Assembly (NCBI GenBank): GCA_965230295.1 | Contig: OZ246001.1 | Location: 3,008,001 to 3,072,000 of the forward strand | Direction: 5' to 3' | Source of the DNA: Marinicella sp. | GTDB lineage: Bacteria > Pseudomonadota > Gammaproteobacteria > Xanthomonadales > Marinicellaceae | Length of the DNA: 64,000 nt | Shown here: in pieces, positions 5,989-53,952 of the stretch | Layout: every line of letters begins with the position of its first letter | How positions within the stretch are numbered: position 1 is the first letter of the stretch | Made by a program: the position numbers and the translations under genes | The notes under the pieces: model-generated | Told to the model about the DNA's origin: nothing | Databases searched by the model: none | What the model saw: only the letters and a program-made list of their open reading frames with translations

Positions 5989-7755
5989 TTAAAATGATAA
6001 ACAGTCAAAGCCACTCTGTGAAATGAAGGGGTATTTTTCATCCTCATCAAATGAATTGTTATCTTGTGGATTTATGTCATTTATGCCACTTAATAATTCA
6101 ACAGCACCTTCAATTCTAATGAGCTCATTCAAAGGAGCATCGACGATTGCATTAATTTTGTATCTAAATGCAGCCCCTACAGGCAGATCTACTATTTCAT
6201 CAATATTACCTGTACCTGAATCAAAAGGGCAAACTGAACCACCATATGAATCACAAGTCCAAGAAAGATCTAAATATTCATTAAATGATTCGTATTCGCC
6301 TGGAAAAGAAGTCACTCGGACATTGCTGACATCCATATTACCAACATTAGTGACATCCAGGAAATATGTGGTTTCTTCATTCACACCATTCTGACAATTA
6401 GAAATGGTGACTTTGAGGTCAGGTAACTCGTCATCAAAATTCACGGCATTGATCTGTGGAATGACCAAAGGAAAGTTCTGATCAAGCGTATCGAGCGAAA
6501 ATCCTATTGTATATTCTTGATCTCCATCAGTATCCTCATCATCTTGGCCTTGAACACTGACCTCAATCGGTTGATTCCAGTTAGACTGGTCTAAGACAAT
6601 ATTTTGTTGAACCACTGTGCCTTCAGACATATCAGTTGAAAAAATTGCGATGTTGACATCATAAGCAGGTGCTTGCGTTAAACGGATAGTAAATTCATCC
6701 TCACCGCCCATTTCTGTTGTGTACAGTTCAGATCCATCATAAGTAATAATAAAATCATAAATTGCTAAATCATCCACCTGAAAATCAACTGGAACAGTAT
6801 TGGATTGATTTTGACCTGAATCTTCAGAATAAGCAAAAGCTCTGGCCGGCCCATTTGCGTATTCAATTTGAGACCTACATTCCCAAGAACCATCTGATTG
6901 AACAATTGTTCGGCAAATATCCTCACCAAGTTCACCAGTAACATACAAAGTATCATTTGGAGTTGCTGTGCCTATAAACTTTGGAAGTTTGGTATTAACT
7001 GTTCCATTAGCAGCAGGCCAGATAAACACAGGGTCAACTGTTGGGTAATAGTCTACATCGAATCTGGTCACAACAACATCAGATCGATTATCAGCAACAT
7101 CAAATGCATATGTAGAAAGTGTATGAGCGCCTTCGCCAAAGCCAGCAGGAAAATTACAGCTCCATAATCCATCTGTTCCAACTGTATTACTTAAACAATG
7201 ACGACCTCCGGAGTACATGAAAACTTGGCTTCCTTCGTCACCAGTCCCACTACCTGCTGAAAAGATTTGGTTGTAAAGAAATCCTTCAATTGGTGCCACA
7301 ATGTTTGGAGCCGCAGGTGCCACTGTATCTATAGTAACTTGAAGGGCCTCTGAATGATCAGACTCAACACCACCCACAGCAATTGGAGTTTCAGTATAAG
7401 TGATCATATAAGTGCCGTCTAATAATGGATCTGTTGGATGTATGCTAAATATTGGCGATCCAGAACAAGAACTATCCCCAATCAGAGTATTGGATGCTGG
7501 GGAATCAGAATACAAGTTAACTCGATTACCCACAGTGCATTCAACCCTAAAAGTAGGTTGATTGTGGTTGGTAATGCCATCTCCATTTACACCTGAGTCT
7601 TGCATTAAAATAGGTGGTGGATTCTGAGTCATTTGTTTTAAGCAACTTGAATCTTTTTCACATTGACCAGGTGTTGCAGAAGAACTGAGAGCCCAATGAT
7701 CAGACCACACGGGCCCGCTAATTAAAATCAAAAATAAAAATATACATTTATACAT
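5989..7755 (-). CDS. Secreted Ig-like repeat protein with Calx-beta/DUF11-like C-terminal domains
   Basis: Signal peptide MYKCIFLFLILISGPVWS (ATG 7755, GGAG 6 nt upstream). Bacterial Ig repeats (TNHNQPTF, DTVAPAAP, DGSWEC). Tail FISQSGFD. Confidence 0.8.
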   Translation of the reverse strand: MYKCIFLFLILISGPVWSDHWALSSSATPGQCEKDSSCLKQMTQNPPPILMQDSGVNGDGITNHNQPTFRVECTVGNRVNLYSDSPASNTLIGDSSCSGSPIFSIHPTDPLLDGTYMITYTETPIAVGGVESDHSEALQVTIDTVAPAAPNIVAPIEGFLYNQIFSAGSGTGDEGSQVFMYSGGRHCLSNTVGTDGLWSCNFPAGFGEGAHTLSTYAFDVADNRSDVVVTRFDVDYYPTVDPVFIWPAANGTVNTKLPKFIGTATPNDTLYVTGELGEDICRTIVQSDGSWECRSQIEYANGPARAFAYSEDSGQNQSNTVPVDFQVDDLAIYDFIITYDGSELYTTEMGGEDEFTIRLTQAPAYDVNIAIFSTDMSEGTVVQQNIVLDQSNWNQPIEVSVQGQDDEDTDGDQEYTIGFSLDTLDQNFPLVIPQINAVNFDDELPDLKVTISNCQNGVNEETTYFLDVTNVGNMDVSNVRVTSFPGEYESFNEYLDLSWTCDSYGGSVCPFDSGTGNIDEIVDLPVGAAFRYKINAIVDAPLNELIRIEGAVELLSGINDINPQDNNSFDEDEKYPFISQSGFDCLSF

Positions 7756-7817
7756 AGTCACACTCCATACACACGTTAATTAAGAGTCTCTATGTTAGGC
7801 CTAAACCAAAAGAAAAA

Positions 7818-7845
7818 CTTGACTATAGCCTGATCAATGTCTGAT
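7818..7845 (-). promoter_or_regulatory. 11-bp-period box
   Basis: CTTGAC 7818, CCTGAT 7829, TCTGAT 7840; TAACAT -10 lies 20 nt downstream (7792-7797). Confidence 0.7.
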
Positions 7846-7980
7846 TTCTGAAACTAAAAATAACATAAAAAGAGAGTTGCTATTCATCCATGTGGTTGTG
7901 ATTAAATGAATAATTTATTTATATTTCATGATTGTGAAATTCGCCGATTATGCTCGTTGAGACGTTTGGAACATAAGTGG

Positions 7981-8012
7981 GGATGGTTTGAAGTCTAAAT
8001 TTCAAACCATCC
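7981..8012 (-). terminator. Terminator-like hairpin after FG-GAP gene
   Basis: GGATGGTTTGAA...TTCAAACCATCC perfect 12-bp stem. Confidence 0.6.
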
Positions 8013-8022
8013 ATGTTAATAA

Positions 8023-9522
8023 TTAGAAAGATCCATCCTCAAAAATTACATCATGCCCATGTATGATATATGCGCCTCCTGAGTTAGTACCATTAGTATT
8101 CATAGCACTGGCTCCAATAATATAGTCATTAAAGCCATCGCCATTGAAGTCATTAATCCCACTGACTGACTCACCGCCTGAATACCCCTGTTCAGCCCCC
8201 TCGATTTTCATCACATCACTCGTCCCCAGCTGGGCAACATGCATAGTGGCATCATAGGTTTGTTTGCCATAAATCAGATATGTTGTTGTTGTGCCATCGG
8301 CATTGATCAAAATATCATTGATGCGATCACCATTGACATCACCGACCCCGCTGACCGATCTGCCAAAATCGTTTCTTGTAGCAGCTCCATGAATCGAGAA
8401 ACCATTGGTGCCATCCAAACCTGACAAATAAAATTCACCAGAGGAATACTGGCTGTTGCCAAAAATCACATAGGCAGATCCGGAATGTTCTCCATTAACA
8501 TCTGCACTGGGAGCTCCAATAACAAAATCATCAATGTCATCGCCGTTGATGTCTCCCAGACCATTCAGTGAAAACCCTGAAATATCATATGCAGCCACAC
8601 CAAACAACTTCAATCCATTGGTACCATCCAGAGTGGCAAGATTAAACTGATCACCAAAACCATTTTCATTTCCGAATACAACAAAGGTGACGCCTGTATT
8701 CAGGGCACCGCCGTCTCCACCGGGAGCTCCAATTAACACATCATCAAGACCGTCATTATTGACATCACCTGCTGATGCAACCACGCCGCCCATTCCACCT
8801 GATTCGAAAAACCTTGAATTGTAGATTCTGAACCCGTTACTTCCATCCAGTGAAGAGACGTTAAATGATGCAGGAAAAGCATTCGCATTTGAACTGCCAT
8901 AAACAACGTAACAGCTATCTGCCCCCGGGGCACAAGTAATAAGATCATCAACCCCATCTTCATTGATATCACCAGCATTTGAAACTGAAGTACCAAAAAA
9001 GCCGTCCTTGGTTTCACTTAACAACTCGAATCCGTTGGTGCCATCCAGGTCTGAAATTTGAAGCAATGGATTGGACTGGGCGCCTCCAAAAACAACATAT
9101 ACGGCCCCTGAATCCCTGTCATGACTTTCGTCATTATTTGCACCAATCACGATGTCGTCATAACCGTCTGCGTTTAGATCACCTGCACTGGAAATTGAAA
9201 AACCAAAAGCCGTATATCCTGGGTTGTCTTTAATCGTAAAGCCATTTTGACCATCCAGATCTGACAATTCAAGTACACCCGAGTTTGGAATGGTCGTTCC
9301 GAAGATGACATGAACCTCGTCTTTGCCGTAAGAGCCAATGAGGAGGTCATCCAATCCGTCACCATTAAAGTCGCCTGCATGACTGACACTCATCCCTGTT
9401 TTGTAACCGTTTGATATTCCTTCTACTTTAAACCCATTAACACCATTAATTGACGAGAGGTCTAAATCAGCCCATGCAACAGGGATAAATGTCAACAAAA
9501 AGAAATTAATTAAAACACGCAC
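8023..9522 (-). CDS. Secreted FG-GAP (integrin-alpha beta-propeller) protein
   Basis: Seven AGDxNxDGxDDxxIGA repeats, signal peptide, tail DVIFEDGSF. Confidence 0.92.
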   Translation of the reverse strand: MRVLINFFLLTFIPVAWADLDLSSINGVNGFKVEGISNGYKTGMSVSHAGDFNGDGLDDLLIGSYGKDEVHVIFGTTIPNSGVLELSDLDGQNGFTIKDNPGYTAFGFSISSAGDLNADGYDDIVIGANNDESHDRDSGAVYVVFGGAQSNPLLQISDLDGTNGFELLSETKDGFFGTSVSNAGDINEDGVDDLITCAPGADSCYVVYGSSNANAFPASFNVSSLDGSNGFRIYNSRFFESGGMGGVVASAGDVNNDGLDDVLIGAPGGDGGALNTGVTFVVFGNENGFGDQFNLATLDGTNGLKLFGVAAYDISGFSLNGLGDINGDDIDDFVIGAPSADVNGEHSGSAYVIFGNSQYSSGEFYLSGLDGTNGFSIHGAATRNDFGRSVSGVGDVNGDRINDILINADGTTTTYLIYGKQTYDATMHVAQLGTSDVMKIEGAEQGYSGGESVSGINDFNGDGFNDYIIGASAMNTNGTNSGGAYIIHGHDVIFEDGSF

Positions 9523-12787: not shown

Positions 12788-13789
12788 ATGAATAGTTCAA
12801 GAGGTTTTAAGAAATTAAAAGGTTTGGCGTCTGCCGGCGCATTGGGATTTGCGGGCATGTTGGGAGCAGGCACCAACCGGGGAGGAGGGAACACAGTTGG
12901 TACTTCATTTTCATTGACTGGTGACAATGTTGTATGGAATGGTTTCTATAATGGGAGATCGTTCCCCTCATCTCATGCAGTCACAACCACCAATGGAGCC
13001 GAATACACCACCGAAACTACCCCTGCCTATTGCATCACTGATGCAGTGATGTTCGAAAACTCAAGTACTTACAGTAATGCTTTTGATTGTGCGATGATTT
13101 TAGCTGTAGATGGAATTCTGTTTATGAACCCTGATTCAAGTGTGACATTAGATGGGAATACGGTAACATCAGATGTGGTTACAGACATCACTCCAGGTAT
13201 TGATGCCCAGATCCAATACCGTATATACACAGATCGAAAAGTGGTCAGAGGTTTGTACTCATTGACCAACACTACATCAAGCAGTATCGATCTCAGTGCA
13301 GCCATTTTGGGTGATTATGGTTCTGATCTCGACACCAATATTGAAACATCCAGCAATAACAATGAAACAATAGAAAATTCTGATTTGTGGTTCATCACCA
13401 GCGATCTGTTTGATTCACGCATTGCAGACAAAAACACAACCCAAGGAAGTGGAAGTAGTTATGGCCCAGTCGTGACTACTACAAGATATGGGGTTGGTGC
13501 TGAAGTCATTCCCACCAACGCCTTAACCCCGATTAATGATGGTGCTGTCTATGGTCTACGATATCAGCTTAATATTCCAGCTGGGACAACGGTTCGAATT
13601 ATGGTGTTTCATGAATTGGGTCTACCTGTACTTGCTAGTATTCCAAATCAAGTTGCAGACGCTGCTGATTTTGAATCAATGACATCATTAGATGTGGCTG
13701 GGTTGATAGATGATTTGGATGATGGCATAAGGGATACTGTTGTGAATTATGGTGACAGTGACGTCATTTTCAATAGTGGTTTTGAATGA
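12788..13789 (+). CDS. Exported protein with atypical Gly-rich leader; paralogue of 19587..20567
   Basis: Leader KGLASAGALGFAGMLGAGTNRGG, beta-rich body, tail DVIFNSGFE. Confidence 0.8.
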   Translation: MNSSRGFKKLKGLASAGALGFAGMLGAGTNRGGGNTVGTSFSLTGDNVVWNGFYNGRSFPSSHAVTTTNGAEYTTETTPAYCITDAVMFENSSTYSNAFDCAMILAVDGILFMNPDSSVTLDGNTVTSDVVTDITPGIDAQIQYRIYTDRKVVRGLYSLTNTTSSSIDLSAAILGDYGSDLDTNIETSSNNNETIENSDLWFITSDLFDSRIADKNTTQGSGSSYGPVVTTTRYGVGAEVIPTNALTPINDGAVYGLRYQLNIPAGTTVRIMVFHELGLPVLASIPNQVADAADFESMTSLDVAGLIDDLDDGIRDTVVNYGDSDVIFNSGFE

Positions 13790-14942: not shown

Positions 14943-16553
14943 TTATTCAAAACCATTGTTAAATATGCCATCATAACCAAACACCACATAACTGGTACCC
15001 GCTGAGGTGATACCATTAGATTCTGCTAAAGGGGCGCCAATGATCAAGTCGTCGACACCATCGCCATTGACATCTCCTGCTGCATTGACAGAACCCCCAA
15101 TGGCATTGCCAGTTGTGCCGCCAATCAAGGTTATGCCACTGTCAGGCCCAATGTCAGACAGATCTACAGGACTGTTAAAACCACTGGTGGTTCCAAACAC
15201 CACATAACAGCTACCTGCTGTGTTGATTCCATTTGGGGTTGCATAAGGGGCGCCAATGATCAAGTCGTCGATACCATCACCATTGACATCACCTGCGGTA
15301 CTGACAGACTGACCACTGATTTCACCAGCTGTGCCACCATTCAGGATGAAACCATTGACCCCATCAAGATTAGCTAGATTTATAGAGCCCGTAAGACCAA
15401 GATTGATGGCTCCAAACACCACATAGCTGTTACCCGCTGAACTGATACCATTTGGTTCTGCAAAAGGAGCACCAATGATCAAGTCATCGATACCATCACC
15501 ATTGACATCACCAGCAGTGCTGACAGACTGACCACTGTTTTCACCAGTTATGCCACCGCTGCCATATAGGGTGAAGCCATTGGTCCCATCGAGGCTAGCT
15601 AGATCTATAGAGCCCGTAAGACCAAGATTGCTGGCTCCAAACACCACATAACTGCTACCTGCACCGCTGTTGCCATTGGGGTCTGCATTAGGAGCACCAA
15701 TAATCAAATCATCGATCTCATCACCATTAACATCACCTGCGGAACTGACAGACTGACCGCTGCTTTCACCAGCAGCGTCTCCATTCAGGATGAAACCATT
15801 GGTCCCATCCAGGCTAGCTAGATCTATAGAACCCGTAAGACCAAGACCACTGGCTCCAAATACCACATGGCTAATACCAGCTGCACTGGTAGCATTTGGG
15901 CTGCCAATAATCAAGTCATCGATCCCATCACCATTGACATCACCTGCTTTGTTGACAGAAGTGCCACTGAAGTCATCAGCTGTACCACCATTCAGGGTGA
16001 AGCCATTGGTCCCATCAAGGCTAGCTAGATCTATAGAGCCCGTAAGACCAAGATTGCTGGCTCCAAACACAACATAGCTTTTACCAGCTCTGCTATGACC
16101 ATTTGGGCTTGCACGAAGAGCCCCAATGATCAGGTCATCGATATGATCGTCATTGACATCACCTGCGGTGCTGACAGACCAACCACTGCGATCATTGTCA
16201 GCATCACCATTCAGTGTAAAACCACTGGATCCAAGGTCAGACAGATCTATGGTGCTGGGAAAACTGCCAGTGGTTCCAAACACCACATAGCTTTCACCAG
16301 CTGAGCTTCTCCCACTTGGGTCTGCGAAAGGAGCGCCAATGATCAAATCATCGATACCATCGCCATTGACATCTCCTGCTGTGCTGACAGAGTATCCACT
16401 GTGATCACTTGCTGCACCACCATGCAGGGAAAACCCATTGCCGCTGGATCCCAGATTAGATACATCTACGGTTGGGTTAGATTGTGCAAGGCTTGATTGA
16501 TGTACTAAAGCTAATACCATCGAAAAGGTCAGCTTGTTACGTTTTATGTTCAT
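14943..16553 (-). CDS. Secreted FG-GAP repeat protein
   Basis: Eight AGDVNGDGIDDLIIGAP-type repeats; start MNIKRNK (ATG 16553); tail DGIFNNGFE. Confidence 0.92.
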   Translation of the reverse strand: MNIKRNKLTFSMVLALVHQSSLAQSNPTVDVSNLGSSGNGFSLHGGAASDHSGYSVSTAGDVNGDGIDDLIIGAPFADPSGRSSAGESYVVFGTTGSFPSTIDLSDLGSSGFTLNGDADNDRSGWSVSTAGDVNDDHIDDLIIGALRASPNGHSRAGKSYVVFGASNLGLTGSIDLASLDGTNGFTLNGGTADDFSGTSVNKAGDVNGDGIDDLIIGSPNATSAAGISHVVFGASGLGLTGSIDLASLDGTNGFILNGDAAGESSGQSVSSAGDVNGDEIDDLIIGAPNADPNGNSGAGSSYVVFGASNLGLTGSIDLASLDGTNGFTLYGSGGITGENSGQSVSTAGDVNGDGIDDLIIGAPFAEPNGISSAGNSYVVFGAINLGLTGSINLANLDGVNGFILNGGTAGEISGQSVSTAGDVNGDGIDDLIIGAPYATPNGINTAGSCYVVFGTTSGFNSPVDLSDIGPDSGITLIGGTTGNAIGGSVNAAGDVNGDGVDDLIIGAPLAESNGITSAGTSYVVFGYDGIFNNGFE

Positions 16554-17021: not shown

Positions 17022-18614
17022 CTATTGATTAAAGCCATTAGCAAATATGCGATCATTACCAAACACCACATAGCTACTACCTGCATTGTTATTACCATTT
17101 GGGTCAGCATAAGGAGCCCCAATAATTAAGTCATCGATACCATCACCATTCACATCTCCAGCTGTGTTGACTGAATGGCCACTTTTATCACGGCCTCCAA
17201 CACCATTAAGCGTAAGACCAGTACCGCTGACCTCCAATGTTGAAAGATTGATTGGGCCCATAATATCAGTGGCTCCAAAAACGACATAGCTGCTACCAGC
17301 ATCAGTATTTCCATATGCGTCAGCGTAAGGAGCGCCAATAACCAAGTCATCAATTCCATCACCATTCACATCACCAGCTGTAGCGACAGATTGGCCGCTC
17401 AAATCTGTTGGTGCACCACCATATAGGGTAAAACCAGTACCGCTGGTCTCAAGGGTTGACAGATTGATTGGGCCAGCAATGTCATTAGCTCCAAAAACCA
17501 CGTAGCTGCTACCAGAATCAGTAACGCCGTTTGGGTCAGCATAAGGAGCCCCAATAATTAAGTCATCGATACCATCACCATTGACATCTCCAGCTGTGTT
17601 GACTGAATGGCCACTTTTATCACCGCCTCCAACACCATTAAGCGTAAGACCAGTACCACTGGCCTCCAGGATTGACAGATTGATTGGGCCCATAATATCA
17701 GTGGCTCCAAAAACGACATAGCTCCTACCTGCATCAGTATTTCCATATGCGTCAGCGTAAGAAGCGCCAATAACCAAGTCATCAATTCCATCACCATTCA
17801 CATCACCAGCTGTACTAACAGAATTACCAGTGAAATCAAGAAAAGCGCCGCCATTTAAAGTAATACCTCTACCATAGGTCTCTAGGGCTGACAGATCTAT
17901 GGGACCAGCAATATCACTGGCACCGAAAATCACATAGCATTCACCAGCTATGCCATCACCATTAGGTGCCCCAATAATCAAGTCATCGATGCCATCATTA
18001 TTCACATCTCCAGCTGAGCTGACAGAGTAGCCACTGTTAATGTAACTTCCAACTCCATTCAAGGCAAAACCTCTACTGCTGGCCTCAAGGTTTGATAAAT
18101 CTATGGTACCTGCAATATCACTGGCTCCAAAAATCACGTAGCTACTACCAGCATTTGTGATGCCATTTGGGCCTGCACTAGGTACCCCAATAATTAAATC
18201 ATCGATGCCATCATCATTGACATCACCTGCTGTGCTGACAGAATAACCACTCTCATCACCAGCTGTATCACCATTAAGAATAAAACCACTACCATTGGCT
18301 ATAAGGGTTGAAAGGTCAATAGTATTTGCAATACCACTGGTTCCAAAAATAACATAACTGCTACCAGCTGAGGGAATATCATTTGGGTCTGCACGATAAG
18401 CGCCAACAATCAGGTCATCAATGCCATCTCCATTGACATCTCCTGCCGAGCTGACAGAAAAACCACTGCGATCACCAGAATTACCACCATTCATGATGAT
18501 ACCTCTGTTGGGGATTAAGTTTGATAGGTCTATATTTGTGTCTAATTGTGCCACAGTTGTTTGTTGAAAGGCCAAAGCCACCAATGCAACCAGTTTTTTA
18601 TGTTTAATGTTCAT
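17022..18614 (-). CDS. Secreted FG-GAP repeat protein with internal two-blade duplication
   Basis: Eight FG-GAP repeats; near-identical DNA blocks at ~17100-17380 and ~17530-17810; tail DRIFANGFNQ. Confidence 0.92.
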   Translation of the reverse strand: MNIKHKKLVALVALAFQQTTVAQLDTNIDLSNLIPNRGIIMNGGNSGDRSGFSVSSAGDVNGDGIDDLIVGAYRADPNDIPSAGSSYVIFGTSGIANTIDLSTLIANGSGFILNGDTAGDESGYSVSTAGDVNDDGIDDLIIGVPSAGPNGITNAGSSYVIFGASDIAGTIDLSNLEASSRGFALNGVGSYINSGYSVSSAGDVNNDGIDDLIIGAPNGDGIAGECYVIFGASDIAGPIDLSALETYGRGITLNGGAFLDFTGNSVSTAGDVNGDGIDDLVIGASYADAYGNTDAGRSYVVFGATDIMGPINLSILEASGTGLTLNGVGGGDKSGHSVNTAGDVNGDGIDDLIIGAPYADPNGVTDSGSSYVVFGANDIAGPINLSTLETSGTGFTLYGGAPTDLSGQSVATAGDVNGDGIDDLVIGAPYADAYGNTDAGSSYVVFGATDIMGPINLSTLEVSGTGLTLNGVGGRDKSGHSVNTAGDVNGDGIDDLIIGAPYADPNGNNNAGSSYVVFGNDRIFANGFNQ

Positions 18615-42652: not shown

Positions 42653-42654
42653 TT

Positions 42655-44136
42655 TTATTCAAAACCATTGGCGAATATGGGCGGATAGATGATCTGAATG
42701 TTCTTGTCAAACACGTTATCCGCAGGAAAATCTTCGCTGGCTGATAGCAGCACAGCACTGCCTGAAATATTGAGGTATTCTCCATCACTGATCAACGCAT
42801 CAAAATTCACCGTGTAGGTCACAGCTGTATTAGGGGGTATTGATATGGTTTCTAGAACGGACCCGGATGTTCCGCCACATGAAGAACCGCCATGATCACA
42901 AGTCCAAGATATATTGGTTGCTGCATTCATGTCTAGATCAACCATAACCTCAACGTCATTTAAGACCAGAATGCTATTGTTTTTCACCAATATCGTTACC
43001 TGTGGATTATCACCATCAATGACTTGGTTTGACACTTCAATTGAAACATCATGATAAATACATTCAACACCTCCATCTGTGATGATCCAATTCTTACCAT
43101 TGATTAAAGCGTCTTTACTTGGACCTCCAGAGCAATAAGGTGTTGTTCCGGCACTGAAGGTTACGTTCTCCATAACGGTTTGGCCAGCAAAGTTATCCAG
43201 CATATCATCATAATGCTGGGTTGATAATCCGGAATTTGTGAACATGTCATCCATATATAAAACATTAGGTATTTGCCAATGCTGTAGATCAGGGTTTGCT
43301 GATGTGGCGCCCTCGAACATTCGTGACATTTCGATCACTGAACTTACATCCCACCGGCTCACATCGGGATTGGCGACACTGGTATCAAAAAACATAGCAG
43401 TCATATTAGTAACAGCTGACACATCCCACCGGCTTACATCGGGATTGGCAGCTGAAGCACCAATAAACAAACCGCCCATATCGGTCACAGCTGACACATC
43501 CCAGCCACGCACATCAAGATTAGCAACATCAGTAGACAGGAACATAGATGCCATATTCATTACAGATGATACATCCCACCTGCTCACATCGATATTGGGA
43601 AATTGAGTATCTCCAAACAGAGATACCATATTGGTAACAGCTGACACATCCCAGTCGCGCACATCAATGGTAGGAATATCACTTGAATAAAACATTTCGT
43701 ACATGCTAGTTACTTGTGACAAGTTCGGCACATCGGGTGCTAAAATTTCTGTTTTAACATAGCTAAATGCATTACTCATTGACTTCCACTCGATATCGCC
43801 CCATTGGTCTATACTTATTAATTGTTCACCTGTATATCTTCTAGCGGATCCTGAAGAACCAAAATTAGGGTTAGGGAAATCCCTGCTGATTTTGAGAGTA
43901 TAAAGGCCTGGATTATCAAAAATGTAAATAAAATCTCCAGTGATTTCAAATTCTTCATACACCAAAAAAAAATTGGCATCTAAAATTTCCACATCATAAT
44001 CGTATGAGAGGTTTGTGGCTGCAATGATGTCTATTTCTAAATCGTTTGATGTGGCCTCCCATGTGGTTATGAAAGGTCGAGCATCCGCAAAAAAAGTCAT
44101 CAGCAATAAACATAGCGTTGGATTTGTCAATCTCAT
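42655..44136 (-). CDS. DUF285/BspA-like surface repeat protein
   Basis: Repeats as above; tail PPIFANGFE. Confidence 0.9.
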   Translation of the reverse strand: MRLTNPTLCLLLMTFFADARPFITTWEATSNDLEIDIIAATNLSYDYDVEILDANFFLVYEEFEITGDFIYIFDNPGLYTLKISRDFPNPNFGSSGSARRYTGEQLISIDQWGDIEWKSMSNAFSYVKTEILAPDVPNLSQVTSMYEMFYSSDIPTIDVRDWDVSAVTNMVSLFGDTQFPNIDVSRWDVSSVMNMASMFLSTDVANLDVRGWDVSAVTDMGGLFIGASAANPDVSRWDVSAVTNMTAMFFDTSVANPDVSRWDVSSVIEMSRMFEGATSANPDLQHWQIPNVLYMDDMFTNSGLSTQHYDDMLDNFAGQTVMENVTFSAGTTPYCSGGPSKDALINGKNWIITDGGVECIYHDVSIEVSNQVIDGDNPQVTILVKNNSILVLNDVEVMVDLDMNAATNISWTCDHGGSSCGGTSGSVLETISIPPNTAVTYTVNFDALISDGEYLNISGSAVLLSASEDFPADNVFDKNIQIIYPPIFANGFE

Positions 44137-44189
44137 TGAATTAACCTGTGGGAAAAAAACTTGATTATGGGTTCGGTCATGAAAAAATA

Positions 44190-44457: not shown

Positions 44458-47136
44458 TTATTCAAAATCACTTTTAAACAATGCCATGATGATCGGAATA
44501 TTTTTGTTGAACGTGTTATTTGCTTGAAAACCATCATCAATGCTTGGTTGTGTTGATACACTGCCTGAAATATCCAGTTCATCGCCATCATTACTCACAA
44601 TGTCGAAATTCACTGCGTATGTCACAACTGAATCTGGGGGCATAGCCGAAATAGTGTCATATACAGTTCCAGATGTTCCGTTACATGACAAACCGGCATG
44701 GTCACATGTCCAAAAGATGTTAGATGTATTGCTGTTGTCTAATGTGACTTCGACAGCAACATTATTTACATACTGATTTCCTGAGTTCTTTACCCATATG
44801 ATCAACTGCGGATTATTTCCATCAAGAACTTGACCACTTGGTAAGTCAATTGATACATCTGTAATAAAACAATCCAAGCCGCCGTCAGCGATTGTCCACC
44901 CTTTGTCATTGATTAAGATTTCTCTGGCAAAACCTGCTGTACAATAAGGTGTATTGCTGGCACTGAAGTTAATGTTGTGCACAACATCTTGACCTGCAAA
45001 GTTCACCAGCAAGCTGTCATAGTTATTTGTTGATAGCCCAGAATAGGCAAGCATATTTTCCATGTCATTTACATTTTCAATTTCCCAGCTTCCAACTTCA
45101 GGATTAAACAAAGTGGCGTTTAAGAACATACGAGACATATCAGTCACAGATGAGACGTCCCATCTACTCAAATCGGAATTGGCAAAAGTAGCGTTACTGA
45201 ACATGTTTTTCATATCGATTACGGATGAAACATTCCAACTGCTCAGATCGAGATTGGCGGCAACTGCTCCATCAAACATGTAACTCATATCGGTTACATT
45301 TGACACATCCCAACCACTCAAGTCAGGTTCAGCACCTCTTGCTTCACTAAACATGTTACCCATATCAGTTACTTTCGTTACATCCCAATCACCCAAATTG
45401 GGGTTGGCAATACGTGTTTGGCTAAACATGCTGTTCATGTTGTTAACTGATGACACATCCCAAGTGCGCAGTTCTGGGCTGGCATCATCGGCACCCCAAA
45501 ACATGCCGGCCATGTTGGTTACATTTGACACATCCCACCCATCAACAACTGGATTGCCAATGGCGTTCCAAAACATATAGCTCATATTGTTTATTGATGA
45601 CATGTCCCAATTGCTCAAAACTGCGAGGTTTCCGACATTACTATTAGCAAACATATATGAAGCATCAGTTACTCGAGTTAGATCAGGCACATCTGAGGTT
45701 GAGAGGTCTGTTGTTATTCCAAAAAAAGCGCGATTCATTGACTTCCACTCGATATCGCCCCATTGATCTACGCTGATCAACTGGCCATTTAATGCGGCGT
45801 TTGAACCAAAAAAATATGGGTTAGGGTATTTCTCACCGTTTATCCTGATGGTGTAAATGCCTGGGTTTGGAACTGTATACAAAAAAGCCCCATTTATTCC
45901 AGTGTAGTCACCCACAATGTTATTATTATTATCTAGGATTTGTATGTTAAAGTTATAATCACTTGAATAGTTCGGGTCAACCCCTAAATCAATACTTAAG
46001 TTGGTGGTTGTGTCCCAAGTCGTGACGAAATCTTTACCTGTAACACGTGTTTTTGATAATCTCAAATTGTCGAAGTTGACTTGAGGACCAGAGCCTGTGG
46101 CTGTAGGAGATAGTGAGTTCAAGCGAATAGATAATGGTTGTCCAATGTGTGTTGGCTGAGCTGTATAAGAAATACTTACTGAATTAAACCTTCCATCTGG
46201 CACAGGTTCATTACTTATACTTGCTAATACTTCACCATTTGACTCTAATGCAATGCTGTAATCAGAAAAATCAACATTTAATCGATTCCCAACATCGACT
46301 ATTAAACAATATGTAGAACCTTCCTCAATAATTTCGCTGGTAGCTTGAATTAATGAGTTTGGACCAAGATTGATATAAGCGACATTTGAACCTTCTGGAA
46401 CAGGATCAATAAAGTCAGTATTTCTGGGGTTATAAGTCCCTTTGCCCAAATTCGGAAACTCGACCCAACCAGGTACATTACTGTTCCAACTACCATCATT
46501 AACTGAAACCTCTTCAAAACCTGGGTTCTGTAAAATGATGCCTTGTATTTTCGACAATCTCACATTATCAAAGTTGACTTGAGGTCCAGAGCCTGTGATA
46601 GAAGGTGAGAGTGAATCCAGGCGAATAGATAATGGTTGTCCAATGTGTGTTGGCTGAGCTGTATAAGAAATACTTACTGAAATAAACCTTCCATCTGGCA
46701 CAGGTTCATTACTTAAACTTGCTAACACTTCACCATTTGACTCTAATGCAATGATGTAATCAGAAAAATCAACATTTAATCGATTTCCTACATCTATAGT
46801 TAAACTATAAGTCGCCCCTTCCTCGATAGTTTCACCCGTTGTTTGTAGCAGAGAGTTTGGACCAATATTGATATAAGCAACATTAGAGCCCTCTGGAACA
46901 GGATCAAGGAAATCAGCATTTGTCGGATTATAAGTACCTTTGCCTAAATTTGTAGACTCGATCCAACCAGGTGCATTACTGTTCCAACTACCATCATTAA
47001 CTGAAACCTCTTCAAAACCAGGATTCTGCAAAATGATGTTTTCTGCACTTGTTTCATGACAGATATTTTGTGCATTCGTTTTACTGCACAAAAGCAAAGT
47101 GAGCAAAAGAGTTTGTATTAAAGCAATCGTTCTCAT
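44458..47136 (-). CDS. DUF285/BspA-like protein with two N-terminal carbohydrate-binding-like jelly-roll domains
   Basis: Duplicated IILQNPGFEE..QVNFDNVRL units, then FVTTW and WDVS repeats; tail ALFKSDFE. Confidence 0.88.
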   Translation of the reverse strand: MRTIALIQTLLLTLLLCSKTNAQNICHETSAENIILQNPGFEEVSVNDGSWNSNAPGWIESTNLGKGTYNPTNADFLDPVPEGSNVAYINIGPNSLLQTTGETIEEGATYSLTIDVGNRLNVDFSDYIIALESNGEVLASLSNEPVPDGRFISVSISYTAQPTHIGQPLSIRLDSLSPSITGSGPQVNFDNVRLSKIQGIILQNPGFEEVSVNDGSWNSNVPGWVEFPNLGKGTYNPRNTDFIDPVPEGSNVAYINLGPNSLIQATSEIIEEGSTYCLIVDVGNRLNVDFSDYSIALESNGEVLASISNEPVPDGRFNSVSISYTAQPTHIGQPLSIRLNSLSPTATGSGPQVNFDNLRLSKTRVTGKDFVTTWDTTTNLSIDLGVDPNYSSDYNFNIQILDNNNNIVGDYTGINGAFLYTVPNPGIYTIRINGEKYPNPYFFGSNAALNGQLISVDQWGDIEWKSMNRAFFGITTDLSTSDVPDLTRVTDASYMFANSNVGNLAVLSNWDMSSINNMSYMFWNAIGNPVVDGWDVSNVTNMAGMFWGADDASPELRTWDVSSVNNMNSMFSQTRIANPNLGDWDVTKVTDMGNMFSEARGAEPDLSGWDVSNVTDMSYMFDGAVAANLDLSSWNVSSVIDMKNMFSNATFANSDLSRWDVSSVTDMSRMFLNATLFNPEVGSWEIENVNDMENMLAYSGLSTNNYDSLLVNFAGQDVVHNINFSASNTPYCTAGFAREILINDKGWTIADGGLDCFITDVSIDLPSGQVLDGNNPQLIIWVKNSGNQYVNNVAVEVTLDNSNTSNIFWTCDHAGLSCNGTSGTVYDTISAMPPDSVVTYAVNFDIVSNDGDELDISGSVSTQPSIDDGFQANNTFNKNIPIIMALFKSDFE

Positions 47137-47190
47137 TGGGATATTCCTAAATTTAGCAATTATTATTTTCTATAGTTCCCTGGATTAATA

Positions 47191-47228
47191 ACTGATCAAA
47201 AACTGATTTAGTGATGATTTTTTCTGAT
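47191..47228 (-). promoter_or_regulatory. 11-bp-period box
   Basis: ACTGAT 47191, ACTGAT 47202, GATGAT 47213, TCTGAT 47223. Confidence 0.7.
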
Positions 47229-47340
47229 TAATTTATCTCTGTAATTTATTCAAAATCACTTTTTTGTATTGATTTGATGTTTGAATGCTTCTATCAAACA
47301 TATTTGTCGAAGGTTTCCCTTTAATTAGATACAGAATTAA

Positions 47341-47368
47341 ATCAGGTAAAAACAAGGGTTTAATCAGG
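47341..47368 (+). promoter_or_regulatory. 11-bp-period box driving candidate sRNA D
   Basis: ATCAGG 47341, ACAAGG 47352, ATCAGG 47363; GATAAT -10 at 47389-47394. Confidence 0.75.
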
Positions 47369-47400
47369 ACATTATCCTGATGTTTCTCGATAATGACCGT

Positions 47401-47540
47401 TAAGGAGCAATGCTTTGGTACACACACTCTCTCTATTGCGTCGCTCTTTATTTGTTCCGCAAGGGTGTCGAGGCTTTTACATTCACCCCCTTATGTACCT
47501 CGTCACTCTTGTGACTCTATCCATACGAGCATTTATTTTT
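47401..47540 (+). ncRNA. Candidate sRNA D (CU-rich first loop, UCACCCCCUU apical loop)
   Basis: GCAAT..ACACACACTCTCTCT-ATTGC; long stem GCAAGGGTG/CACTCTTGT, CGAGG/CCTCG, TACAT/ATGTA with loop TCACCCCCTT; U-rich end. Confidence 0.55.
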
Positions 47541-48879: not shown

Positions 48880-50160
48880 TCATTCATCAAAACCGTTTTT
48901 AAATATTACAGATTCTGCATAATTGACAGTTATAAGTCTATCAATTACATTGTCAGCAGGAAAATTCTCAGAAGCTATTGTGGCATTGCCAGTAACTAAA
49001 ATATAATGATCATTACTACTGGAACCCGAAAAGTCGAAATTCACGTTGTACGTCACAACTGAGCCCCCATTGAGTGTTGGTATGTAAGATATAATCGCGT
49101 CAGTGCCTGAACCACATGAAACACCATCATTATCACATGTCCAAGTAATATTAGAAACTTCGGCTGAGGCTATAAAAAAACTTACATCAATGCCATCTAA
49201 TATAGGTATAATCCCAGAAGAGTTTCTTACAATAACCGTCAGATTAGGATCGTTAGCATCAATAGAATCTACACCAGTTGGTAAATAAATTGAAACATCT
49301 CGTGCAACACAATTACTACCATCATCAATGATCGACCAACCCTTATTAGTAATTAAATCATCTCTTGGGACGGAAGCGCAGTGTGGAGTATCTCCTGCAT
49401 TCAAGTTAACGTTTTGCATTACGTCTTGTTCTGAAAAGCTATGCAACATTTGGCTGTAGTTAAGCCTTGATAGACCGGAAGTAGGGTAGAACATTTCACC
49501 CATTGTGGTTACATTTGTCACATCCCAATTTTCGATATTAGGGTTGGCATCCGTTGCATTACCAAATAGATAACTCATATTAGTAACTTGAGATGTATTC
49601 CAGAGATCTACTATTGGATTGAAACCGTGTGAACTTACAAACATACCCTCTAATGTGATTGCAGCAGATGTATCCAAATGAGTCAATTCAAGATACGGTA
49701 ATGTAGAGTAAGCAAACGCATACTCGAAACTTGATACTTGAGAGGTATTAGGCACATCTGTGGCAGAAAAAAATGTACCATTTAAGATCGAAAATGCATT
49801 TTCCCATGATTTCCATTCAATATCTCCCCACTGTTTTAATTCGGTAAATTTGTTATGCGCACCTGGGGAGTTGCCCATGTTGGGGTTTGCAAATGCACCA
49901 TAGATTTTGACTTCATAAGTACCCGGATTTTGATAAATGTGGTTAACGTCCCCGGTTTGATTTAGAAGTTCTGGGGTTCCGTCACCGAAATCTATTCTGT
50001 AGTTGTATTCGGATAGATGATTTTGATCTCTAGGAATCACAAGATTCAAATCAGATGGATCTACAGTCCATTCGAATATGAAAGGCTCTGCCTGTGCATG
50101 TGCAGAAGTTGTCATGAGAATTGAAAATAAAATAAAAATCGTAAAGTATATAAGTTTCAT
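48880..50160 (-). CDS. DUF285/BspA-like surface protein with PKD-like N-domain
   Basis: IDFGDG..HIYQNPGTYEVKI, QWGDIEWKS, WNTSQVTNM repeats; tail VIFKNGFDE. Confidence 0.9.
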   Translation of the reverse strand: MKLIYFTIFILFSILMTTSAHAQAEPFIFEWTVDPSDLNLVIPRDQNHLSEYNYRIDFGDGTPELLNQTGDVNHIYQNPGTYEVKIYGAFANPNMGNSPGAHNKFTELKQWGDIEWKSWENAFSILNGTFFSATDVPNTSQVSSFEYAFAYSTLPYLELTHLDTSAAITLEGMFVSSHGFNPIVDLWNTSQVTNMSYLFGNATDANPNIENWDVTNVTTMGEMFYPTSGLSRLNYSQMLHSFSEQDVMQNVNLNAGDTPHCASVPRDDLITNKGWSIIDDGSNCVARDVSIYLPTGVDSIDANDPNLTVIVRNSSGIIPILDGIDVSFFIASAEVSNITWTCDNDGVSCGSGTDAIISYIPTLNGGSVVTYNVNFDFSGSSSNDHYILVTGNATIASENFPADNVIDRLITVNYAESVIFKNGFDE

Positions 50161-50212
50161 AATGTTACTACCTAGTAAAAAAAATTATTATGGGTGGTGT
50201 GTGAATAAATAA

Positions 50213-50240
50213 ACTGACTCAAACCTGATTTTTTACTGAT
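50213..50240 (-). promoter_or_regulatory. 11-bp-period box
   Basis: ACTGAC 50213, CCTGAT 50224, ACTGAT 50235; CATAAT 50187-50192. Confidence 0.75.
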
Positions 50241-50255
50241 GATTGATTCAACGTT

Positions 50256-52217
50256 TTATTCAAAGCCGTTTTGGAATATAAGTTCATAAGTAACAGGAAT
50301 GTTCTTGTTAAACATGTTGTCAGCAGGATAACCATCAGCACCTGTAAGCATTGAGACGCTACCCAAAATATTCACTTCTTCGCTTTCAGCTGCCGATGTG
50401 TCAAAATGGATGGTAAAAGTTGTCCCTGTATCAGGCGGCATGTTCATAAGCGAATATGAAATCTCACCAGATGTTCCACCAACTCCAACACATGCAGGGT
50501 CGAAATCACATGTCCAGGAAATATTTGATGTATTGATAGGGTCTAGTGTAATGAGAACTTCTATGTCCTCTGTTTGGTAGCCTGAATTTTCAACATATAC
50601 GATCAACTCAGGAGCATATCCATTCAGAGTTTGAATGTTTTGTAACACAGCTCTGGCATCAGGAGTATAGCAACCAATCGGACCTGCATCGATGATGGTC
50701 CATCCTTTTAGATTGATTAAATCGTCTCGTGCAGAACTCGACTCGCAGTAAGGTGTACCATCAGCATTGAAAGTGACATTACTCATTACATTTTGTGAAG
50801 CGAGGTTAGACAGCCAGCGGTCATAGTTTCTTGTTGAAAACCCTGGTATCAATGACGTGTCGAAGTAACCAAACATGTTAGTCATGTCACTGACATTTTG
50901 CACATCCCAGAACTGAAGGTCCGGGTTAGCTTTTGGAGTGTGTAAAAACATGTGGAACATGTCAGTCACATTAGAAACGTCCCAATTGGTCACATCAGGA
51001 TTGGCTTCGTCAGCTCCAGCAAACATGGCATTCATAGTGGTGACTGATGATGTATCCCAATTTTCAACTTCGGGATCGGCAACATTCGCGTCAATGAACA
51101 TTCTACTCATATCGACCACATTGGAAGTATCCCATTTTGATACGTTGGGGTTAGCAATTTCAGCACTTGCAAACATAACACTCGTGGTGGTGACAGATGA
51201 TGTATCCCAATTTTCAACATCAGGGTTGGCGCAACAAGTTCCACTGAACATGCCGCCAATGGATTCTACATTTGAAATATCCCATCCACTGACATCTGGA
51301 TCGGCATCAGAAAGACTGAACATTGAAGACATGTTAGTTACATTTGATACAACCCAACTACTCACATTCGGAGTGAAATTGACCCCAAAAAACATACCTG
51401 ACATGTCGGTTATGTTTGAAACATCCCAACTTCCTACATCATAAGTGCCAGTGGAGTAATAAAACATGCTCGACATATTTGTTACACTTGACAAATTCCA
51501 GTCTCCTACATCTGCTTCTCCAGATGCGCCAGCAAACATAAAGCTCATATTTTCAACACTACTTGTAATCCAATCGCCAGTATCAGGTACAAATGACTGA
51601 ACCCCATCGTCATTAATTCCTCCTGTTTCTCTGAATGTACCGCGCATATTTGTTACATTACTAACGTCCCATGAACCAAAGCCCCGAATATTGCCAGCTG
51701 CTTTCCAGAAAGCATGATCCAAATTTCTTGCAGATGACATGTCCCAATCACTTAGATCGACATCAACTTCACAATTTCCACACATATATGTAAAGTCAGT
51801 TACTTGAGATAGGTCAGGTGGGTTTTGTAGTGCAAATGTAATGCCTTTCGCTTCTCTGAAAGCGGATTTCATAGACAACCAGGGCATGTCCATTTCAAGT
51901 ATGCGGATTATTTGGCGGTTCCGAGCAGAGCGAGAGCCAAATAGATAAGGATTTGGAAAATTTCCAGTGATCCTAACAGTATAGATTCTAGGGCTAAAAT
52001 ATGTGTACTGAACATTTCCAGTTTGCCCAGTGAGTTCAGGATTACCATCATTATCGAGATCTACATTAAAATTGTATGGAAGGCTAGGATCAGTCCTTAT
52101 ATCGAGAGTTAATCCGTCGGGTAATTGGTCATTCGCTTCGAATTCAAAGACGAAATCAGCATTTGCCGAGAACGATACAAGAATAAGAAATAAAATGGAA
52201 GAAATTGTATATTTCAT
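50256..52217 (-). CDS. DUF285/BspA-like surface repeat protein
   Basis: About 12 WDxSxVxxMxxMF repeats; RBS GAGGTGA; tail LIFQNGFE. Confidence 0.9.
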   Translation of the reverse strand: MKYTISSILFLILVSFSANADFVFEFEANDQLPDGLTLDIRTDPSLPYNFNVDLDNDGNPELTGQTGNVQYTYFSPRIYTVRITGNFPNPYLFGSRSARNRQIIRILEMDMPWLSMKSAFREAKGITFALQNPPDLSQVTDFTYMCGNCEVDVDLSDWDMSSARNLDHAFWKAAGNIRGFGSWDVSNVTNMRGTFRETGGINDDGVQSFVPDTGDWITSSVENMSFMFAGASGEADVGDWNLSSVTNMSSMFYYSTGTYDVGSWDVSNITDMSGMFFGVNFTPNVSSWVVSNVTNMSSMFSLSDADPDVSGWDISNVESIGGMFSGTCCANPDVENWDTSSVTTTSVMFASAEIANPNVSKWDTSNVVDMSRMFIDANVADPEVENWDTSSVTTMNAMFAGADEANPDVTNWDVSNVTDMFHMFLHTPKANPDLQFWDVQNVSDMTNMFGYFDTSLIPGFSTRNYDRWLSNLASQNVMSNVTFNADGTPYCESSSARDDLINLKGWTIIDAGPIGCYTPDARAVLQNIQTLNGYAPELIVYVENSGYQTEDIEVLITLDPINTSNISWTCDFDPACVGVGGTSGEISYSLMNMPPDTGTTFTIHFDTSAAESEEVNILGSVSMLTGADGYPADNMFNKNIPVTYELIFQNGFE

Positions 52218-52449: not shown

Positions 52450-52509
52450 GGCACACCCTTAATTGGTCGTTAAACTTGAAACCAGTTTAAGATGCATGGT
52501 TTATATTGA

Positions 52510-52537
52510 CCTTACCGAAACCGGATTAATATCTGTT
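52510..52537 (-). promoter_or_regulatory. 11-bp-period box
   Basis: CCTTAC 52510, CCGGAT 52521, TCTGTT 52532; TAAACT -10 at 52484-52489. Confidence 0.7.
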
Positions 52538-52732
52538 TTTATCTTTAAAAACTTGAAAAAAACCTAAAAAAAATAAAAATGACAGTTTTAGACTGGATAT
52601 ATAAAAACCTGGCTAAGTTGTAGCTGACTTAAAGGAAATTTGTTAATCAGTAACAGAGGCTTTATCTAAATTTTGAATGAAAATGGTTACTACATAAATA
52701 ATTAAGAAGTTATTAGGAGGTATGTTTAATAA

Positions 52733-52771
52733 ATCAGGTATTAATTAAGTAAAGGTCAGCAATAGATCAGG
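52733..52771 (+). promoter_or_regulatory. 11-bp-period box
   Basis: ATCAGG 52733, GTCAGC 52755, ATCAGG 52766; AATAAT at 52792-52797. Confidence 0.7.
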
Positions 52772-52845
52772 ATTATGATTTAAATATATTCAATAATTAA
52801 ATTGATGCAATGGATGTGTCTTATTAATTTAGTGAATTACAAATC

Positions 52846-53952
52846 ATGAGTGTGTATATGTTGAAATCATCAAGTCGTATCGAAAAGAAGGTTTTGCCTC
52901 CATATTTTTTAAACCTCCCAGTTTATATGCTGATATATTTTGGTTTATTAACTATCCCTAGATCAGCCTTTCCAGAAACACCTTCTTCTGAATATAAATC
53001 AGATCCAGATTACTCTGTTGTTATAGATGGGATACCTAATCAATACGATGATGTGTTGAACACACCAGAAATAGATAAAGTGGATTTGGAAGCATTGATA
53101 TGGGAACCAGAAGTGGCCGGTATCTATCCGGCAATCATTATGCTACATGGGGCAGGTGGCTTGTATTACCAAAGTGATGACTCATGTGATGATGCTGACA
53201 GGAGTTGTTGGGGGTTATCTGGCAAATTTCGATACTGGGCTCATTTATTAAGTAAAGGTCACCCATACGATTATTCGGATAAATTTATCATCATTGCAGT
53301 TGATTCCCACACCCCACGAGGTTATGACCATCATGGAGTGTCTCAAATAGCCAGTGGATCCAGACCTGCAAATGTCACAGCTCATCTTGGTAGGCCTTGG
53401 GATTTTTATGCAGCACTGAATTATTTAAAGTCACGAGATGATGTGATTCAAAATGAAATTTTTGCTCTGGGGTTTTCTGATGGCGGTGGGGGGGTGTTGA
53501 GTGCAATCGCTGCATCAGATCAAGCCGTTATGGTTAATGAATCTGATTATTTTCATGGAATTGATAACAACTCTGAAGAGGGGCGTGCAGTAATGGCCGA
53601 TGATTCAGTCAGCGGCGCTGTAGTTTTTTATCCAAGTTGTGGTCTTCAAGGTTATTTTAATGGTGCATACACTCATTTTGGACAACTATTGGTCCAAGTT
53701 GGCAGTGATGATGACATCACTGTGCCGTCAAGATGTATTGAACGCCAATCTGAATCCATTGGTTTAGGAATAAGCCCGACTGATTTTGTTATTGATATTT
53801 ACGAAGGGGCTGATCATGGTTTCGATTATTTTGAATCTGAAACTCAAAATGCCTGTATTGCAACAGAAAAGGCTATTTCATTTTTTTCAGCAAAAGTAGG
53901 TGACAGCATTTTTTCATCTCACTTTAACTCTAATGTTTGTGCAGAAAATTAA
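52846..53952 (+). CDS. Dienelactone-hydrolase-family alpha/beta hydrolase, exported
   Basis: PAIIMLHGAGG, nucleophile GFSDGG, VGSDDDIT (Asp), YEGADHGFD (His); tail DSIFSSHFN. Start position uncertain. Confidence 0.85.
   Translation: MSVYMLKSSSRIEKKVLPPYFLNLPVYMLIYFGLLTIPRSAFPETPSSEYKSDPDYSVVIDGIPNQYDDVLNTPEIDKVDLEALIWEPEVAGIYPAIIMLHGAGGLYYQSDDSCDDADRSCWGLSGKFRYWAHLLSKGHPYDYSDKFIIIAVDSHTPRGYDHHGVSQIASGSRPANVTAHLGRPWDFYAALNYLKSRDDVIQNEIFALGFSDGGGGVLSAIAASDQAVMVNESDYFHGIDNNSEEGRAVMADDSVSGAVVFYPSCGLQGYFNGAYTHFGQLLVQVGSDDDITVPSRCIERQSESIGLGISPTDFVIDIYEGADHGFDYFESETQNACIATEKAISFFSAKVGDSIFSSHFNSNVCAEN

Follow-up and report, generated by a model that had tools for sequence, protein, structure and literature searches.

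A nine-residue C-terminal tail on unrelated exported proteins of Marinicella and its association with a type II secretion system

Why should exported proteins with unrelated bodies end in the same few residues? The question is raised by a 64,000-nucleotide stretch of the genome of Marinicella sp. (order Lysobacterales, family Marinicellaceae), here called the window, which covers positions 3008001-3072000 of a single-contig genome of 4,008,074 bp with 44% G+C. Loci named Marinicella match this genome at 72-84% nucleotide identity over 1-5 kb. A first-pass annotation of this DNA had noted a common C-terminal tail on 16 proteins and had proposed that it is a sorting or anchoring signal. We find that the tail is under selection, restricted to the order and predicted to be unstructured, that it marks the C-termini of exported proteins, and that across the order it is statistically tied to the canonical GspC(PDZ)-GspD-GspE type II secretion system (T2SS), an association that is new here. 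We tentatively read it as an address tag on T2SS cargo.

A C-terminal tag on exported proteins

The tail comprises nine residues with the consensus D-hydrophobic-[ILV]-F-x-[DNS]-[GD]-F-[ED]-COOH. We searched a crude set of 3266 gene-like open reading frames (ORFs) of at least 100 amino acids, drawn from the whole 4.0-Mb genome, with the pattern [ILVM]F..[GSNDH]F placed inside the last 14 residues. It was present in 125 ORFs, compared with 4.45 ± 2.65 in twenty shuffles of the last 40 residues of each protein, a 28-fold excess. Matches at least 30 residues from an end numbered just 175 in 1,207,463 residues, and a stricter motif occurred 65 times at the C-terminus versus 3 times further inside. 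Aligned, the 125 tails read D (94 cases), L/V, I (103 cases), F, any residue, D/N/S, G/D, F, E/D and the end of the protein. The second F is followed by E in 63 tails and by D in 37, and in 66 it is the penultimate residue of the protein; the proteins stop 0-8 residues past the motif and have no hydrophobic stretch there. Their last residue is E in 44 cases, D in 23 and F in only 10, while the residues that precede the tail are ordinary in composition, with no linker-type bias.

Tagged proteins are predominantly of the exported type. By a permissive rule, 101 of the 125 begin with a signal-peptide-like N-terminus as against 1184 of 3141 untagged proteins, and by a stricter rule 71 of 125 as against 613 of 3141, both rules being our own heuristics. 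A proteome-wide pattern search, which the first-pass annotation had proposed, thus finds the motif enriched at the C-termini of signal-peptide-type proteins. One tagged protein of 427 residues (genome contig 3398354-3399637) bears a twin-arginine signal (NRRAFLQ), which fits a route that accepts folded periplasmic proteins. The remark that lipoproteins lack the tail holds inside the window; across the whole genome, lipobox-like signals occur in 2 of the 125 tagged proteins.

All 16 ORFs noted earlier were found with their tails at the expected positions, and 14 of the 16 tails fit the consensus. Those of the proteins encoded at 5989-7761 and 8023-9522 deviate, and the membership of 52846-53952 is doubtful, as its motif is followed by 8 residues and its N-terminus is not signal-peptide-like by a heuristic rule. 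The window holds 14 tagged genes compared with a mean of 2.0 per 64 kb. The family assignments made earlier also stand: the bodies are unrelated, belonging to Big_13/DUF11, FG-GAP, CarboxypepD_reg/fn3, DUF285, PKD, HpiC1-like and DLH families and to one unnamed family. The tails, in window coordinates, are as follows.

5992..6030, - strand: PFISQSGFD plus 4 residues, deviant and outside the search pattern, on the Big_13/DUF11 protein 5989-7761
8026..8052, - strand: DVIFEDGSF, deviant and outside the search pattern, on the FG-GAP protein 8023-9522
13760..13786, + strand: DVIFNSGFE, on the 333-aa exported protein 12788-13789 of the unnamed family, with a beta-rich body
14946..14972, - strand: DGIFNNGFE, on the FG-GAP propeller protein 14943-16577
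17025..17054, - strand: DRIFANGFNQ, on the FG-GAP protein 17022-18614
20532..20564, + strand: DDIFKDGFESN, on the 335-aa protein 19560-20567, a paralogue of the 12788-13789 protein
25337..25360, + strand: VIIFSSGF, ending at the second F, on the CarboxypepD_reg protein 23429-25363
29811..29840, + strand: APIFRDGFDN, on the 1309-aa CarboxypepD_reg/fn3 protein 25914-29843
37811..37855, - strand: KSIFENSFD plus 6 residues, on the DUF285 protein 37808-39493
39551..39577, - strand: KSIFKSNFE, on the DUF285 protein 39548-40942
41031..41057, - strand: PPIFANGFE, on the DUF285 protein 41028-42572
42658..42684, - strand: PPIFANGFE, on the DUF285 protein 42655-44136
44461..44487, - strand: MALFKSDFE, on the HpiC1-like/DUF285 protein 44458-47136
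48883..48912, - strand: SVIFKNGFDE, on the PKD/DUF285 protein 48880-50160
50259..50285, - strand: ELIFQNGFE, on the DUF285 protein 50256-52217
53902..53949, + strand: DSIFSSHFN plus 7 residues, on the DLH-family protein 52846-53952, a doubtful member

The tail is under selection at the protein level and is not part of the fold. Conservation of the tail codons is concentrated at positions 1 and 2 (1.41 and 1.47 bits), with 0.69 bits at position 3 and 0.10 and 0.08 bits in the flanks. Since conservation is confined to the first two codon positions, the tail is not a DNA repeat, and a repeat or mobile element is ruled out as its origin. AlphaFold2, run for the 12788-13789 protein on a 35-sequence alignment, predicted the body with confidence (mean pLDDT, the predicted local distance difference test score, 83.8) and gave residues 328-333 a pLDDT below 50 and no secondary structure. 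We therefore find no evidence for the beta-strand docking tag that the first-pass annotation had envisaged. The model itself showed only weak likeness in Foldseek (TM-score 0.32-0.45) to beta-rich regions of GH94/GH65 phosphorylases and of YidC.

Comparison with homologues shows that the tail fills the slot held by transmembrane-type sorting signals in other bacteria. For the 12788-13789 protein, 41 homologues were found and 35 aligned; an invariant N320-Y321 closes the domain, and beyond it 6 of the 35 carry the tail and 29 carry a proline-rich spacer, a transmembrane helix and an arginine/lysine cluster, one of them named MYXO-CTERM in its source. Among the best 120 listed homologues of the FG-GAP protein 14943-16577, 5 are tailed directly after the last SYVVFG strand and 4 have PEP-CTERM-like ends; precomputed Pfam annotation of the same 120 places PF07589 in 2, a type IX secretion system (T9SS) C-terminal domain (CTD) in 2, dockerin in 6 and RTX repeats in many. 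We also scanned against NCBIfam 113 of the 137 tagged ORFs found in loci of other genomes (at least 150 aa, shortest first). Choice-of-anchor families were matched by 29 of the 113 (Q 23, J 2, X 1, B 1, F 1, D 1), and a tagged M36 peptidase from another genome scored best on the T9SS-dependent M36 model, at 780.9 bits. On an unrelated set of families, proteome-wide and at the extreme C-terminus, the tail thus behaves as the C-terminal sorting or anchoring signal that had been proposed. The Marinicella genome itself has about 5 transmembrane-type ends (a VPVP/LPTLS-like motif, a transmembrane helix and basic residues) beside some 120 tails.

Genome contig 3056-3868, 820214-821107, 982792-983415, 2285626-2286402 and 2778439-2783760: transmembrane-type sorting ends

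Neither Pfam nor NCBIfam lists the tail. Pfam and NCBIfam placed no sorting-domain or CTERM model on the 16 window proteins, NCBIfam none of its CTERM models on the 113 tagged proteins of other genomes, and the last 40 residues of 12 window tails had no NCBIfam match even at E up to 10. The tail was not described in the literature searched, where, of the motif strings, only 'ifangfe' occurred, in papers with unrelated titles among the matches listed. The earlier statement that no characterised machinery is known for it agrees with these searches, and the tail is probably an undescribed address label.

The window shows some further features. The DUF285 (PARCEL-repeat) genes form an array of seven paralogues (window 37808-52217), every one tagged, one with two HpiC1-cyclase-like domains and one with a PKD domain. 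Interspersed between tagged genes are a CadC-like regulator (Trans_reg_C plus TPR, 10107-12401), a DUF4915 protein (13874-14914) and a TPR-sulfotransferase protein (20623-22812). The stretch 30000-37000 is low in G+C (0.305 in 32-36 kb versus 0.35-0.48 elsewhere in the window) and contains short hemerythrin-like ORFs and an EAL-domain fragment. A denitrification cluster (55966-63246) encodes a cytochrome cd1 nitrite reductase, a TonB-dependent receptor, a COX1-family (nitric-oxide-reductase-like) protein and a cytochrome c, with a Crp-type regulator nearby (54937-55836). Elsewhere in the genome, a domain of about 90 residues that finishes with a D-x-D-G-D-G-type motif forms the C-terminus of three large proteins; it comes directly after an internal copy of the tail in two, and the third is a paralogue.

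Genome contig 1502239-1506363, 3172793-3178705 and 1421560-1424421: proteins with the domain of about 90 residues

Distribution and the type II secretion link

A DNA scan for D-hydrophobic-I-F-x-D-G-F-E-stop, with one genome per species, yielded at least 118 loci. Among the 80 matches listed, 34 bear the name Marinicella, 10 that of 'Lysobacterales bacterium', 8 Dokdonella, 2 each Rhodanobacteraceae and Pseudofulvimonas, and 1 each Rudaea and Wenzhouxiangellaceae; 18 carry vaguer proteobacterial or Alcanivoracaceae labels, and 2 each come from Thermoanaerobaculia and Bacillota. We applied two DNA patterns to a common set of 151 genomes from the order: the narrow one matched 91 and the broad one 105, with reversed-pattern controls near zero and tail counts of up to 71-75 per genome. 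In families f4, f9 and f11 the place of the Marinicella I is mostly taken by L or V, family f2 is negative but for one genome, and 5 of 17 genomes are positive in family f12. Across 200 other gammaproteobacterial families, represented by one genome each, the maximum was 1 match for the narrow pattern and 2 for the broad, the level of the controls; an unpublished genome (G290) in the broad-pattern sample was likewise at background. Thus, among the genomes searched, the tail does not rise above background outside the order, and the statement in the first-pass annotation that similar tails occur in Xanthomonadales proved correct.

Thermoanaerobaculia were considered as a second tailed clade and rejected, each genome having one match with more residues after the motif. 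In one metagenome-assembled genome a signal-peptide protein with delta-60 repeats (L078:426-1772) ends in DLIFADGFE plus 7 residues, and a second has the same DLIFADGFE followed by W, again one match per genome. The Bacillota and Christensenella matches were set aside as chance; one of them is the N-terminus of a protein that looks cytoplasmic.

As is expected of T2SS cargo, the tagged proteins mostly carry Sec- or Tat-like signals and the genome encodes two T2SS gene sets. Three secretins are present: PilQ, that of an Xps-like T2SS at 855-868 kb, and that of a canonical gspC-D-E-F set at 654-660 kb, whose pseudopilin genes lie apart at 2608-2611 kb. The Xps-like system was dismissed as the one that tracks the tail, since its marker PF10741 is found in 149 of the 151 genomes and does not discriminate. 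GspC (PF11356) is found in 106, distributed by family as f1 17/17, f2 4/18 (one strong), f3 7/8, f4 17/17, f5 4/4, f6 2/2, f7 17/17, f8 0/17, f9 14/15, f10 1/1, f11 17/17 and f12 5/17.

When a genome was scored tail-positive with at least 3 matches by either DNA pattern and GspC-positive with a PF11356 match at E <1e-10, 92 of the 151 genomes had both, 44 neither, 11 GspC only and 4 the tail only. Because related genomes are not independent, we rely on contrasts within families and not on P-values. In family f12 the 5 tail-positive genomes of 17 are exactly the 5 with GspC, in family f2 the sole tail-rich genome of 18 (22 matches) is the one with the sole strong GspC match, and one genus splits into tail-positive, GspC-positive and tail-negative, GspC-negative members. 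The genes gspC-D-E occur together in 18 of 20 loci fetched around PF11356 matches, all 19 GspC proteins of the fetched loci have a C-terminal PDZ domain, and the family matches the structures of OutC, PulC and EpsC. In the tail-poor family f7, the PDZ domain of GspC has lost 5 residues immediately ahead of its conserved G-x-R loop.

Possible roles of the tail

From these associations we infer that the tagged proteins are cargo of the Gsp-type T2SS and that their tail is recognised during the outer-membrane step or later. The proteins would reach the periplasm by Sec or Tat, as their N-terminal signals suggest, and fold there, the tail being predicted to stay flexible and exposed. Judging from the co-occurrence, the tail would then mark cargo of the GspC-GspD-GspE system for outer-membrane passage and then display or release, and the PDZ domain of GspC may be the tail reader. 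We assign a probability of about 0.4 to this reading, in which the tail is an address tag on T2SS cargo and the GspC PDZ domain is the favoured reader. Counting for such a reader are the PDZ domain in all 19 GspC proteins, the fixed spacing to the carboxylate in 66 of 125 tails, and the f7 PDZ deletion. A bolder version would make the tail the first linear, transferable T2SS signal, a nonapeptide bound via its free carboxylate by the GspC PDZ domain and recruiting more than 100 unrelated folded proteins per cell throughout the order; this we consider unlikely.

Several observations weigh against an address tag read by GspC. Three f8 genomes have about 4-11 F-x-[DN]-G-F-E-stop ends that look genuine, a GspC profile search of five genomes of that family returned only DegP-like PDZ matches, and the best GspE in four of its genomes is of the Xps type (43-45% identity versus 53-57% for orthologues). 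Conversely, genus g10 (9 genomes) has GspC with PDZ and 0 broad-pattern matches, so that the Gsp system is neither strictly needed nor sufficient. GspC with a PDZ domain is common in Gammaproteobacteria, where the tail is not above background. The 59 of 125 tails without the canonical end spacing are awkward for classical PDZ binding, the relatedness of the genomes means that the two-by-two table overstates the link, and both traits could be lost together where lineages shrink their secretome. Work on Vibrio cholerae cuts both ways. It offers a precedent for a PDZ reader, since only part of the cargo there, namely VesB, a GlyGly-CTERM protein, requires the GspC PDZ domain; but the C-terminal signal of VesB serves surface retention, not secretion, and what the PDZ domain depends on is contained in a folded Ig domain (PMC12369372). 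The tail could, by analogy, act after secretion.

The same VesB findings make surface retention possible, and nearly as likely as an address tag. Whichever T2SS a genome has would then export the proteins via folded-domain signals, and the acidic-aromatic tail would dock non-covalently to an outer-membrane protein, a surface layer or lipopolysaccharide, in the last case perhaps through divalent cations. VesB itself is a precedent for a C-terminal signal that gives surface localisation rather than secretion (PMC12369372). The tail stands in place of the membrane-anchoring signals of homologues, many tagged proteins are adhesin-like or of choice-of-anchor families, and retention would account for the tails in f8 genomes that lack a Gsp-type system. 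It would also fit Wenzhouxiangella AB-CW3, in which, as reported, no protease activity is released to the medium and the authors assume outer-membrane-anchored proteases (PMC7691419). However, our searches yielded no receptor candidate, the tail has no hydrophobic anchor, and its tight co-loss with GspC in f2 and f12 needs a further assumption. A 473-aa signal-peptide protein with no Pfam match, which has 10 paralogues, adjoins the Xps-like secretin (genome contig 855496-856917); our guess is that it may be like NpdA, a surface-layer protein reported beside T2SS genes in Dokdonella, Rudaea and Wenzhouxiangella (PMC10765051). The NpdA-like family of 11 paralogues adjoining the Xps-type T2SS is, however, also present in a tail-free genome; it therefore does not discriminate, which counts against retention by this route, and it was rejected as a reader.

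A dedicated Lysobacterales-specific transpeptidase or translocon of the periplasm or outer membrane, which would cleave or attach the tail and leave the T2SS link indirect, would suit the many-to-one logic of known sorting signals, the confinement of the tail to one order among the genomes sampled and the imperfect match with GspC. We regard it as rather unlikely, for no transport or processing gene recurs beside tagged genes. Our neighbourhood analysis covered 118 loci of up to 8 kb around tagged genes (757 ORFs, 137 of them tagged) and 20 loci, each 20 kb at most, of genomes in which narrow-pattern matches are few, and it revealed no transporter; nor did these loci, or the PDZ proteins that we tested, reveal a sorting enzyme. 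The untagged neighbours that recur in the 118 loci are a serine/threonine kinase-TPR protein (10 members, 8 loci) and an extracytoplasmic function (ECF) sigma factor (7 members, 7 loci), besides an RND pump with its fusion protein, PBP1 and housekeeping genes; a histidine kinase and the serine/threonine kinase-TPR protein recur in the 20 longer loci. The ECF sigma and kinase-TPR genes adjoin tagged genes in several genera and probably regulate exoprotein genes locally. We also tested two odd PDZ proteins as readers, and neither proved to be conserved: an Asp-protease-PDZ protein had matches in 5 of 151 genomes and in 0 of the 17 other genomes of its own family, and a PDZ-alpha/beta-hydrolase was limited to 1 of 5 test genomes. 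Periplasmic PDZ proteases (Prc/Tsp, DegP/Q/S, tricorn-like S41) might instead read the tail as a quality-control or processing motif, either as a trigger for C-terminal maturation or with its acidic last residue as protection from tail-specific degradation. Proteins of this kind, each with a PDZ domain, are encoded in the genome, namely Tsp/Prc, two that are DegP/Q-like, one that is DegS-like and a tricorn-like S41 protease, and 66 of 125 tails keep a fixed distance from the free C-terminus. Yet these proteases are near-universal, whereas the tail is confined to one order, and such a role, which we find improbable, leaves both the equivalence with the anchoring-signal slot and the GspC link unexplained. 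Finally, the tail might have no function of its own, having arisen by compositional accident or having spread as a short module through recombination or common descent. Paralogue arrays do share tails, as in the seven DUF285 genes and several FG-GAP genes of the window. The present data nevertheless weigh strongly against this last view, which has very little to recommend it: the tail occurs on unrelated folds, exceeds shuffles 28-fold, is conserved at the protein and not the DNA level, and is kept from the roughly 44% G+C of this genome to lineages with much G+C-richer tail codons.

Cargo choice by the T2SS is a long-standing open question, and a 2025 paper still recognises no linear universal signal (PMC12369372). 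A tail that tracks a GspC(PDZ) system across an order offers a directly testable handle on it, being a nine-residue tag that a genome places on dozens to more than 100 exoproteins of unrelated kinds. Should retention prove the better account, Gram-negative bacteria would have a new means of keeping proteins at their surface that needs no enzyme. Used as a small tag, the tail might direct secretion or display, and a short model of it would label thousands of proteins of Marinicella, Dokdonella, Wenzhouxiangella, Rudaea and related bacteria as exported and sorted.

Comparison with known sorting and secretion signals

As the first-pass annotation had held, the tail differs from PEP-CTERM/GlyGly-CTERM, having no transmembrane helix or basic end, and from the T9SS CTD, being far shorter. 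Like PEP-CTERM/exosortase, MYXO-CTERM, IPTL-CTERM (the label used here for LPTLSP-type ends) and LPXTG/sortase signals, it sits at the extreme C-terminus of signal-peptide proteins from unrelated families. With these tripartite signals it also shares dozens to more than 100 targets per genome, a lineage-restricted distribution and placement at the same point in homologues. Unlike them, it has neither a hydrophobic helix nor a basic cluster, and no sorting enzyme was identified for it. The T9SS CTD (PF18962) is likewise a C-terminal export tag free of transmembrane segments on diverse secreted and surface proteins, and it occurs on homologues of tagged proteins. It is, however, a folded domain of about 70-100 residues in Bacteroidota, whereas the tail is a nonapeptide, predicted to be unstructured, in Gammaproteobacteria; T9SS CTDs of the PF18962/TIGR04183 type had no match in the 16 window proteins. 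A precedent for a very short sorting motif is NF050076 (sort_motif_YLP), an 11-position NCBIfam model whose motif differs from the tail, with 0 matches in this genome and none in the control genomes.

Type I secretion signals stand on proteins with no N-terminal signal peptide and often with RTX repeats, in contrast to the signal-peptide-like N-termini of 101 of the 125 tagged proteins; none of the 16 window proteins belongs to an RTX family. The outer-membrane beta-signal closes a beta-barrel with an aromatic end, whereas the tagged bodies belong to soluble-domain families and the last residue is F in only 10 of 125. Envelope peptides read by PDZ domains include the Y-x-F end of outer-membrane proteins, sensed by DegS, and the substrates of the tail-specific protease Prc. 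Like these, the tail is a short aromatic C-terminal peptide in the periplasm with a fixed spacing to the carboxylate; unlike them, with their hydrophobic last residue and their role as stress or degradation signals, it has E or D after the second F in 100 of 125 tails and is carried by folded soluble cargo.

The closest comparison is with GlyGly-CTERM/rhombosortase, as found on VesB. GlyGly-CTERM is a transmembrane helix with a basic end, cut by an intramembrane protease, whereas the tail is a nonapeptide with an acidic end and no transmembrane segment. In V. cholerae, VesB secretion depends on the GspC PDZ domain, with the signal serving surface retention and the PDZ reading the folded Ig domain, unlike what we propose for the tail (PMC12369372). 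Both are nonetheless C-terminal signals on Sec-exported proteins of many families in Gammaproteobacteria, transported by a T2SS in the one case and putatively so in the other, and M36 peptidases and choice-of-anchor families occur with either signal.

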